A stretch of 32,915 bases of DNA, taken from contig JAESUI010000045.1 in assembly GCA_016763135.1 (NCBI GenBank), positions 1-32,915 of the forward strand, given 5' to 3'. Within the stretch, counting starts at the first letter, position 1; every line of letters starts with the position of its first letter. This stretch comes from Flavobacteriales bacterium (lineage in GTDB: Bacteria > Bacteroidota > Bacteroidia > Flavobacteriales_E > Vicingaceae). Positions 6,814-7,934 of the stretch are shown piece by piece. The notes beneath the pieces are model-generated. The model did not search any database. It was not told where the DNA came from and was given only the letters and a program-made list of their open reading frames with translations. The position numbers and the translations under genes are program-made.

Positions 6814-7452
6814 ATGGCAGAAACGATAAAAGATTTAATAAATGGGAATGTATCATGGGTTAACAATACTTTAAAGCATAACCCCAATTTTTTTAATAAG
6901 TTAGCTACTGGACAATCCCCACAATTTCTTTGGATAGGATGTTCAGATAGTCGTGTTCCAGCTACAGAAATTACAAATGCCCTCCCCGGTTCAATTTTTG
7001 TTCAGAGAAATATTGCCAACATGGTAGTTCATACAGACTCTAATTTGTTAAGTGTTGTAAATTATGCTGTAAAAGTGTTAAAAGTAAAACACATTATTGT
7101 GTGTGGTCATTATGGATGTGGTGGAGTACAAGCTGCAATGAGCAACGAAAATTTTGGTTTCTTGGACAACTGGTTGATGCACATCAAAGATGTTTACCGC
7201 TTGCATGAAAAAGAGCTTGACGAGATCAAAGATGAGAAGAAAAAATTGGATAGATATGTTGAGCTCAACATCCAAGAACAGGTGACTAACTTGGCTAAGG
7301 TTTCGTTTATTCAGCAAGAGTGGAATAATGGAGAATTCCCTCATATTCATGGTTGGGTTTATAGCCTGAAGGATGGATTAATAAAAGACCTTGGTGTAAG
7401 TGTTAATAATAACGATGCTTTGGAGCAAGTTTACCAATACAACGAGAAATGA
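6814..7452 (+). CDS. can: beta-class carbonic anhydrase (Can type)
   Basis: Full beta-CA signature: WIGCSDSRVP (Cys43, Asp45, Arg47), VCGHYGCGGV (His99, Cys102), HGWVYSLKDGLIKDL. It is collinear with E. coli Can as I remember that sequence. Confidence 0.93.
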   Translation: MAETIKDLINGNVSWVNNTLKHNPNFFNKLATGQSPQFLWIGCSDSRVPATEITNALPGSIFVQRNIANMVVHTDSNLLSVVNYAVKVLKVKHIIVCGHYGCGGVQAAMSNENFGFLDNWLMHIKDVYRLHEKELDEIKDEKKKLDRYVELNIQEQVTNLAKVSFIQQEWNNGEFPHIHGWVYSLKDGLIKDLGVSVNNNDALEQVYQYNEK

Positions 7453-7934
7453 TGAATAGATTATTTCTAGTTTGTCCTGACTGTTATATGGAACAACCTA
7501 TACGTGAAAAATTTGGTGAAAACAGTTTCTTTTTAACTGCATTAGGTACTGCCTTTGATTTGAGTGAATTTAAATTAATGGAAGAAATAAACCAATTTAT
7601 CAGAAGGGAGGATGTAAAAGAGATCTATTTGGTTAATGATTCCCAGTGTACTTTTATTAAAAGTGCTTTAGCAAACGAAGTACGTTTTGATACAAAAGCT
7701 GAGAAAATATTGCTAGATATTTGTAATAGCGATGATTTAATTAAGGATATACGAGATCAAGAATTAAAGAGTAAAAAAATATCTGAATCAAATGTCTACC
7801 GTTTGGCCTATGAATTAATGGAATCTGCTATTTTAGGTATGAAAATTTCTGAAGGAGAAATTAACTTGAAAGGGTTAATTTATAACAGGAAGGATAAAAC
7901 ATTTCAAACCTTAAGATTGGATTTAAACGCGTGA
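7449..7934 (+). CDS. degenerate beta-carbonic-anhydrase-like protein, 161 aa (paralog of 10497..10982)
   Basis: The ATG overlaps the can stop (ATGA at 7449-7452). VCPDCY aligns with CSDSR, LVNDSQCT with CGHYGCG, and LKGLIYNRKD with HGWVYSLKD. Putative ligands are C9, D11, D64 and C67, with Arg replaced by Tyr. Confidence 0.6.
   Translation: MMNRLFLVCPDCYMEQPIREKFGENSFFLTALGTAFDLSEFKLMEEINQFIRREDVKEIYLVNDSQCTFIKSALANEVRFDTKAEKILLDICNSDDLIKDIRDQELKSKKISESNVYRLAYELMESAILGMKISEGEINLKGLIYNRKDKTFQTLRLDLNA

Follow-up and report, generated by a model that had tools for sequence, protein, structure and literature searches.

Modules derived from the beta-carbonic anhydrase (beta-CA) fold, with an altered or lost zinc site, form part of CO2-concentrating machinery in the C-terminal domain of CsoSCA and in algal LCIB, and CsoSCA pairs an active beta-CA domain with a degenerate one. 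A regulator of a different kind, the PII-fold protein SbtB, is encoded downstream of cyanobacterial sbtA. Heterotrophic marine Flavobacteriia and other Bacteroidota need bicarbonate for anaplerotic and biosynthetic carboxylations and have SbtA-, SulP- and DAB-type importers of inorganic carbon (Ci); to our knowledge, how such importers are controlled outside cyanobacteria is not known. Here, we analysed a stretch of 32,915 nucleotides (nt) from a Flavobacteriales bacterium (assembly GCA_016763135.1, contig JAESUI010000045.1, forward strand; hereafter the window), in which can, the gene of a canonical beta-CA, overlaps a gene for a protein of 161 amino acids (aa) with a predicted beta-CA fold and a degenerate active site. 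We call this protein and its family fam1, and our analysis points to a probable accessory or regulatory role in Ci acquisition and not to a second enzyme.

The operon niche of fam1 and its proposed regulatory logic are like those of SbtB, both proteins being small, soluble and co-encoded with a bicarbonate transporter of the SbtA family. Unlike SbtB, fam1 is encoded upstream of the transporter and not downstream, has a beta-CA fold instead of a PII fold and shows no evident nucleotide-binding features. The hallmarks of a PII-like regulator (a ferredoxin-like trimer fold and a T-loop) were not found in fam1, for which Foldseek returned a beta-CA fold. As in DabA of the DAB complex (for DAB2, see PMC13144422), a beta-CA-derived module with an altered zinc site is placed within the Ci-uptake machinery. 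In contrast to CsoSCA, DabA and LCIB, which are domains of larger proteins or keep Cys/His/Cys, fam1 is free-standing, has 160 aa and carries Asp at the His position. What is new is thus fam1 as an uncharacterised family; canonical and Cab-type beta-CAs, the Arg-less CafD and the degenerate modules of CsoSCA, DabA and LCIB were known already, and SbtB corresponds to it by role only.

The can-fam1 gene pair and the fold of fam1

The gene can (6814–7452, + strand) encodes a canonical beta-CA (Pro_CA, 4.3e-54; NCBIfam carbonate dehydratase equivalog NF007756, 261.5 bits against a cutoff of 251), and fam1 occupies 7449–7934 on the same strand, as delimited in the list of open reading frames (ORFs). 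In the raw sequence, the TGA of can (7450–7452) and the ATG of fam1 (7449–7451) overlap as ATGA at 7449–7452, as an original prediction on this DNA had reported, and the residues that it quoted for the two 161-aa proteins of the window were all found in place (C9, D11, Y13, D64 and C67 in fam1; C13, D15, Y17, H66 and C69 in the protein encoded at 10497–10982, discussed below). Because of the overlap, fam1 and Can are likely to be produced together. Relatives keep the can-fam1 adjacency; their two genes overlap by 1 nt or are ~17–60 nt apart. A terminator-like hairpin 5′ of can (6673–6692, +), found by a consensus scan only, suggests that can-fam1 is a separate two-gene unit.

An AlphaFold2 (AF2) model of fam1, built from an alignment of 144 sequences, had a predicted local distance difference test score (pLDDT) of 96 and a predicted template-modelling score (pTM) of 0.90. 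When it was compared with the PDB by Foldseek, the best 50 matches were all beta-CAs, with query-normalised template-modelling scores (TMq) of 0.75–0.84 and E ~1e-8. A 12-sequence fam1 profile searched against PDB sequences recovered the yeast beta-CA Nce103 (3eyx) at E 1e-8; the top 23 of its 34 matches were beta-CAs, while the non-CA ones were few and all at E ≥ 0.049. Against the canonical CAs of fam1-type loci, hhalign gave a probability of 96.6 and E 5e-10. The Pfam model Pro_CA (PF00484) matched the window protein at 23.4 bits, below its gathering score of 25.7 and over residues 46–148 only, and some relatives carry a precomputed PF00484 match. In summary, the assignment of the modelled structure to the beta-CA fold is secure, and fam1 is a cytoplasmic protein of ~160 aa with a complete beta-CA core fold, without the N-terminal arm and most of the catalytic residues.

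The residues were mapped with a MAFFT alignment to eight canonical CAs from the window and related loci. Like the canonical beta-CAs (E. coli Can/ECCA, H. influenzae HICA; PF00484), with which it shares the core fold at TMq ~0.8, fam1 has both zinc-ligand cysteines (C9 and C67, equivalent to C43 and C102 of can) and keeps the structural motifs around can F62, N152 and G180 (F28, N115 and G142). The Asp of the CxDxR motif (can D45) is retained as D11 in the subtype to which the window protein belongs, with CPDC at positions 9 to 12. Unlike the canonical enzymes, fam1 is ~50 residues shorter and has no N-terminal arm; only 8 residues precede C9, and the Gln of the GQxP motif is absent. The zinc-ligand set Cys-His-Cys is lost as well, since Asp64 takes the place of the His ligand (can H99), and a His is never conserved at this position family-wide. 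There is no Asp-Arg dyad either, Asp11 being confined to the CPDC subtype and the Arg position (can R47) being Tyr13 here and variable in the family. The strand-2 Arg (can R65) is Ala31, and the Gly-Gly/Ala that follows the second Cys in the canonical pocket (CGG, can G103 onwards) is replaced by T68 and F69, the family pattern being C-T/R-F. Conversely, E15 (can P49) is specific to fam1 and near-invariant.

On the DNA, the counterpart of CxDxR (C9-P10-D11-C12-Y13-M14-E15, in which C9, P10 and E15 are near-invariant family-wide) is encoded at 7473–7493 (C9 at 7473–7475, D11 at 7479–7481, E15 at 7491–7493), and that of the canonical G-H-x-x-C-G-G (V62-N-D64-S-Q-C67-T-F69, with His changed to Asp and GG to T/R-F) at 7632–7655 (D64 at 7638–7640, C67 at 7647–7649), both on the + strand. 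In the AF2 model, the CP motif lies at the end of strand 1, directly before the helix that starts at E15.

A precedent for the loss of the Arg is CafD, a Cab-type minor beta-CA of Aspergillus fumigatus (PDB 6jqe, ~170 aa), which is mostly inactive because this Arg is Gly (PMC7528686). CafD is also among the fold matches of fam1, and both proteins are short and without the Arg of the Asp-Arg switch. In contrast to fam1, in which the His is gone as well, CafD keeps Cys/His/Cys and weak activity, and has no link to a transporter.

Type II beta-CAs have a non-catalytic bicarbonate site made up of Trp39, Arg64 and Tyr181 (HICA/ECCA). This allosteric site was considered as a sensing site of fam1 and rejected; the three positions align to F6 (aromatic, but not Trp), A31 and Y145, and the last is Tyr only in the CPDC subtype, being Thr in the subtype with CPFS at positions 9 to 12.

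The fam1 family and its genomic neighbourhoods

The size of the family was seen in an exhaustive hidden Markov model (HMM) search of 1.84 billion representatives, which gave, for cutoffs of E ≤ 1e-3, 1e-10 and 1e-30, 393, 208 and 32 clusters (50% identity), respectively; a word-indexed homolog search returned 12–26 relatives only, of 148–174 aa. Most of the best 150 matches have ~150–180 aa, and the longer members contain no further Pfam domains, the sole extra being one C-terminal transmembrane tail. Neither Pfam nor NCBIfam has a model that names the family, its members are unannotated or auto-labelled 'carbonic anhydrase' in the sources, and no description of it was found in the literature searched, including PMC10880623 and PMC13144422. 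The family is large, fast-evolving and uncharacterised.

Among 144 full-length members, L5, C9, P10, E15, F28 and C67 are near-invariant, and T30, V62, D64, F69, E85, Q119 and G142 are strongly conserved, so that the family signature reads CPxxxxE ... V-x-D-x-x-C-x-F. D64 is found in 110 of the 144 (~76%), with Ser or Asn in the others, and C67 in 131; thus, ~10% of the members are without C67 and some without D64, and a subset (e.g., P0068, P0116 and P0159) has no C67 yet keeps the CP...E motif. Most members have Phe at position 11, and only the near subfamily has Asp or Glu there; position 12 is occupied by Cys or Ser, and position 13 varies. The set Cys/Asp/Asp/Cys with Tyr for Arg, which had been proposed as the ligand set, therefore describes the window protein and its near subfamily but not the family as a whole. 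Judged from the alignment, the substitutions at D64 and C67, together with Phe11, are looser than expected for a catalytic metal site. In P0068 (284 aa), which also lacks C12, a low-complexity linker separates the fam1 domain from a hydrophobic C-terminal segment resembling a membrane anchor; this hints at action at the membrane, and a gene-calling fusion is possible.

We collected 61 fam1 loci, which were annotated by tblastn and Pfam, and all counts refer to the 45 non-identical ones, many of which are related. Since the 144-sequence alignment had no stretch conserved enough for a genome scan, an alignment of the near family was used, and CPDC members are accordingly over-represented in the taxonomy sample. 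CPFS-type patterns served for the metagenome scan, which has the opposite bias and whose loci come without taxonomy. In the taxonomy sample, 13 of the 13 genome-assigned loci belong to Bacteroidota (Allomuricauda, Lacinutrix, Brumimicrobium, Saprospiraceae, Ferruginibacter, Cognataquiflexum and Cyclobacterium). Two metagenomic loci carry sorting domains of the type IX secretion system (T9SS) type.

A gene with the PF05982 domain (Sbt_1, SbtA-like) lies directly downstream of fam1 on the same strand in 24 of the 45 loci. The two are 2–139 nt apart by the coordinates of tblastn high-scoring pairs, and by ORF or gene-call coordinates they overlap by 4 nt in L013 and by 35 nt in L024. The remaining placements are after dabB-dabA in three loci (two of them Brumimicrobium), before SulP in one, after can in five (including the window) and with CA then Sbt_1 in one. 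Altogether, the fetched stretch contains one or more Ci genes in 34 of the 45 loci, and at least 9 have a canonical CA in the cluster that holds fam1. Because this proximity to Ci transporters or CA is conserved between divergent genomes, fam1 is a component of Ci-acquisition loci.

The typical cluster consists of a divergent CbbR-like LysR regulator, followed by NADP-isocitrate dehydrogenase (IDH), DUF6671, Sua5/TsaC (L-threonylcarbamoyladenylate synthase), dihydroorotase, fam1 and Sbt_1, with the sometime addition of a canonical CA and, once, of PurK/PurE. Several enzymes of this set use up bicarbonate or depend on CO2, and the cluster looks like a low-CO2 or Ci/bicarbonate-supply regulon. 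It recurs in L020, L022, L024, L029–L035, L041 and L056 (e.g., L032, 1–6460), with a dihydroorotase that matches NF006688 at 640 bits. For DUF6671, we know of no described function, and a search of PDB sequences gave no informative match.

The motif at positions 9 to 12 goes with the neighbour. Scored per locus, among loci that are related and not an independent sample, it is members of the CPFS/Thr145 subtype that are encoded directly ahead of Sbt_1. The CPDC/Tyr145 subtype, including the window protein, is found beside can, dabBA, SulP or IDH, and in none of its loci does Sbt_1 follow directly. This covariation suggests a partner-specific adaptation of the two subtypes.

Between the window and locus L001, the identity is 84% for can, 72% for SulP, 69% for DabA, 62% for DabB and 48% for fam1; fam1 thus evolves much faster than the neighbouring genes. 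In L019 (7971–8102), from an uncultured Flavobacteriales metagenome-assembled genome, can is 86% identical to that of the window, and fam1 is reduced to a 15-residue remnant, 'MNKLFLICPDCYLEN', beyond which come unrelated residues and, after 43 aa, a stop codon. In this close relative, fam1 was apparently lost or truncated, although an assembly artefact is possible.

fam2 and the other genes of the window

The second 161-aa protein, fam2, is encoded at 10497–10982 (−) within the dabA-dabB-sulP operon. It shares with fam1 the length, the fold, the missing N-terminal arm, the Tyr in place of Arg (Tyr17) and the location in a Ci locus. In contrast to fam1, it keeps C13, D15, H66 and C69, of which Asp15 and His66 are invariant, and scores above the gathering score of Pro_CA (30.3 bits); because it retains Cys/Asp/His/Cys and passes this threshold, fam2 differs in kind from fam1. 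A word-indexed search found six relatives of 161–173 aa, with S-C-x-D-S-Y-F and G-H-Y-x-C invariant, and in L026–L028 fam2 has the same fixed place in dabA-dabB-sulP-(fam2, DUF2490). Its AF2 model is of lower quality (pLDDT 71), with CafD as the best fold match and other beta-CAs beside it. fam2 could be a beta-CA that is locked or of low activity, or else serve DAB/SulP as an accessory.

In the original prediction, fam1 and fam2 were two diverged members of one small CA-derived family. A pairwise BLASTP comparison gave only a 22-aa C-terminal match (E 0.04), and profiles were therefore needed; the similarity is at the profile level only. The 144-sequence profile of fam1 aligned to fam2 by hhalign over 156 columns with a probability of 96.1% and E 3.3e-9 (68% and E 4.7e-5 for the near-family profile alone), so that significant profile similarity was found between the two proteins as well as to beta-CA. 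Both hhalign and MAFFT reproduced the predicted register (C9=C13, D11=D15, Y13=Y17, D64=H66, C67=C69 and INLKG=INIKG). Profile and fold agree that the two proteins are beta-CA-derived, as had been proposed, and both lie in conserved Ci loci. Their identical length is real but coincidental as a sign of kinship, given the spread of lengths among the relatives of each. What did not hold is the single small family: fam1 is large, and the two are no closer to each other than to canonical beta-CA. The fam1 HMM scored can at 34.2 bits and fam2 at 8.8, the fam2 HMM scored can at 33.1 and fam1 at 15.5, and the hhalign scores were 68 for fam1 against canonical CAs, 60 for fam1 against fam2 and 56 for fam2 against canonical CAs. 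By these scores, fam1, fam2 and the canonical beta-CAs appear to be three roughly equidistant lineages; long-branch effects could hide a deeper sister relationship of fam1 and fam2, and nothing positively supports one.

fam2 belongs to a minus-strand series that converges from the right on can-fam1, in the order dabA, dabB, SulP/STAS, NhaD, fam2, DUF2490, methyltransferase, a gene like that of acyl carrier protein and a PAP2 gene. DabA, the beta-CA-like cytoplasmic subunit of DAB, is encoded at 16473–19001 (−; PF10070, 8.6e-203), and DabB, the membrane subunit of this CO2-uptake complex, at 14588–16456 (−; Proton_antipo_M and Proton_antipo_N). The SulP/STAS transporter (12349–14541, −) is a BicA-like candidate bicarbonate transporter, which the BicA model scores below its cutoff. 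An NhaD-type Na+/H+ antiporter (11013–12308, −; Pfam CitMHS, NCBIfam NhaD_1 at 158 bits against a cutoff of 80) is encoded between sulP and fam2 in the window, whereas the related operons L001, L026 and L027 lack it; its insertion fits a Na+-coupled bicarbonate uptake that needs Na+ extrusion. The DUF2490 protein (9734–10483, −) is a conserved member of the Dab/SulP locus. Directly upstream of dabA is a 114-aa ORF (19076–19420, −) with no Pfam or NCBIfam match, and small unannotated ORFs of 106–138 aa, matched by position only, occur at this place in L026–L028. A Crp/Fnr-family regulator with a cyclic nucleotide (cNMP)-binding domain (19506–20198, +) is divergent from the dab operon and, by its position only, a candidate regulator of the dab locus.

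Upstream of can, a 66-aa Cys-rich ORF (6430–6630, +) with a lipoprotein-like signal (…MTVVSC…), several CxxC-type spacings and no Pfam match precedes the hairpin at 6673–6692. Rfam found no RNA family anywhere in the window and, hence, no known riboswitch upstream of can. Near the left end lies an IS110-family transposase (1973–2968, −), and near the right end a 201-aa ORF (31496–32101, +), whose match to the SulP (Sulfate_transp) domain is confined to the first half of the domain and which may be a truncated second SulP gene.

Possible functions of fam1

We consider it about an even chance (0.5) that fam1 is a non-catalytic, beta-CA-derived accessory or regulatory partner, or sensor, of Ci uptake and hydration systems. 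It would be a pseudoenzyme and not a conventional CO2 hydratase, with the Cys9/Asp64/Cys67 pocket kept as a remnant and as a putative metal, bicarbonate/CO2 or redox-sensing site. In the CPDC subtype, the fourth position could be taken by D11 and C12, which would leave the site permanently 'closed', with no Arg to open it. In most relatives, fam1 would act on the SbtA-like Na+/bicarbonate transporter encoded directly after it, in the operon niche of cyanobacterial SbtB; the C-terminal transmembrane tail of one member hints at a membrane link. In the window, where it would be co-translated with Can and lies near the dabA-dabB-sulP-nhaD operon, fam1 may tune Can, DAB or SulP to the Ci status of the cell, its target being Can, the neighbouring DAB/SulP machinery or both. 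A role other than simple redundancy, as had also been predicted, is likely; fam1 has neither the His ligand nor the dyad Arg, and a redundant CA is argued against by the canonical CA found in the same cluster in at least 9 loci.

Several points weigh against this accessory role. The loci were fetched with peptide patterns that bias the sample, and many are interrelated; with the type II triad unconserved, fam1 has no recognisable bicarbonate-sensing site; and fam1 seems dispensable in L019, where can was retained. The divergence from the window is also discordant, with 68% identity for fam1 and 48% for can in L004 against 48% and 84%, respectively, in L001, which argues against a tight Can-fam1 co-evolution; either can or fam1 was exchanged while the adjacency was kept. 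Further, the promiscuity of partners (Sbt_1, SulP, DAB and Can) would also fit a generic CO2/HCO3- chemistry, and real CAs commonly share such synteny with Ci transporters, so that this evidence suits a non-canonical carbonic anhydrase as well as an accessory. Such an enzyme would interconvert CO2 and HCO3- beside the Ci importer of the genome, using a Cys-Asp-Cys site plus water, Zn or another metal, and Glu15 as the general base. The complete beta-CA fold and the 'carbonic anhydrase' label of some sources are in line with it, and the two ligand Cys and the carboxylate at the His position, all largely conserved, together with the near-invariant Glu15, could make up a working metal-hydroxide site. 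However, the Asp-Arg dyad, the GQxP Gln, the CGG motif and Arg65 are all gone, position 11 is mostly Phe, D64 and C67 are replaced in ~10–24% of the members, the same operon often holds a canonical CA, and the window protein falls under the Pfam threshold and evolves faster than can. On balance, we regard catalysis by fam1 as less likely than the accessory role, of which it is the main rival.

On the model of the original prediction, fam1 and fam2 are paralogs of one small family, and each would serve the CA of its locus as a modulator or chaperone; fam1 would then form a hetero-oligomer with Can. We hold this model to be improbable. The ATGA coupling, the can-fam1 adjacency conserved in five loci and the absence of the Arg and the N-terminal arm from both proteins speak for it, as does the fact that beta-CAs are obligate dimers, and the CsoSCA pairing of an active with a degenerate domain offers a parallel. 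However, most members of the large fam1 family adjoin Sbt_1, Dab or SulP and not can, the SbtA-like transporter being the dominant neighbour, so that a modulator or chaperone of Can does not stand as the general role. The equidistance of fam1, fam2 and the canonical CAs, the discordant can/fam1 divergence between genomes and the remnant of fam1 next to an 86%-identical can in L019 weigh in the same direction, and fam2, with its full Cys/Asp/His/Cys site, sits in the dab-sulP operon and not at a CA locus. A zinc chaperone for Can or DabA was likewise rejected as a general role, as the main partners, Sbt_1 and SulP, are not zinc proteins. We give still less credence to a thiol/redox or Fe-S sensor, in which Ci uptake would be coupled to the redox state through C9, acting together with C12 and C67 as a centre that is redox-active or binds a cluster. 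C9-P10 is the most conserved element and is kept even without C67 or D64, its position at the end of strand 1, ahead of the helix from E15, would suit such a centre, and the alternation of CP[D/E]C and CPFS, with Cys or Ser at position 12, resembles the dithiol/monothiol CxxC/CxxS pairs of redox proteins. This resemblance is, however, its sole basis; the fold is that of beta-CA and not thioredoxin-like, and no redox partner genes recur in the annotated loci. Lastly, the degenerate catalytic residues, the fast evolution and the truncation in L019 might be taken for a functionless, decaying duplicate of can, but this is effectively refuted by the family-wide conservation: 208 clusters (50% identity, E ≤ 1e-10) with intact ORFs of ~160 aa, family-specific near-invariant residues, a fold predicted very confidently from the family alignment and a synteny kept across several Bacteroidota families make it extremely improbable.

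Returning to the non-catalytic accessory role, a more specific version is possible, and we put it forward tentatively. The pseudoenzyme family would be a dedicated CO2/bicarbonate (or metal/redox) sensing regulator of Bacteroidota Ci uptake, a counterpart of SbtB on a different fold, with some subtypes fitted to SbtA-like transporters and others to Can/DAB/SulP. It would act inside a 'low-CO2 regulon' under the CbbR-like LysR protein, which would join Ci importers with enzymes that depend on bicarbonate or CO2, namely TsaC/Sua5, dihydroorotase, PurK/PurE and NADP-isocitrate dehydrogenase.

In summary, fam1 is a concrete candidate for the missing accessory factor or regulator of Ci uptake in Bacteroidota or, alternatively, a CA with an unprecedented Cys/Asp/Cys site. 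Either outcome bears on the annotation of its members, which are now unnamed or automatically called carbonic anhydrases, and also on Ci homeostasis in heterotrophs and on the transplantation of bicarbonate transporters, where missing accessory factors are a recurring problem.

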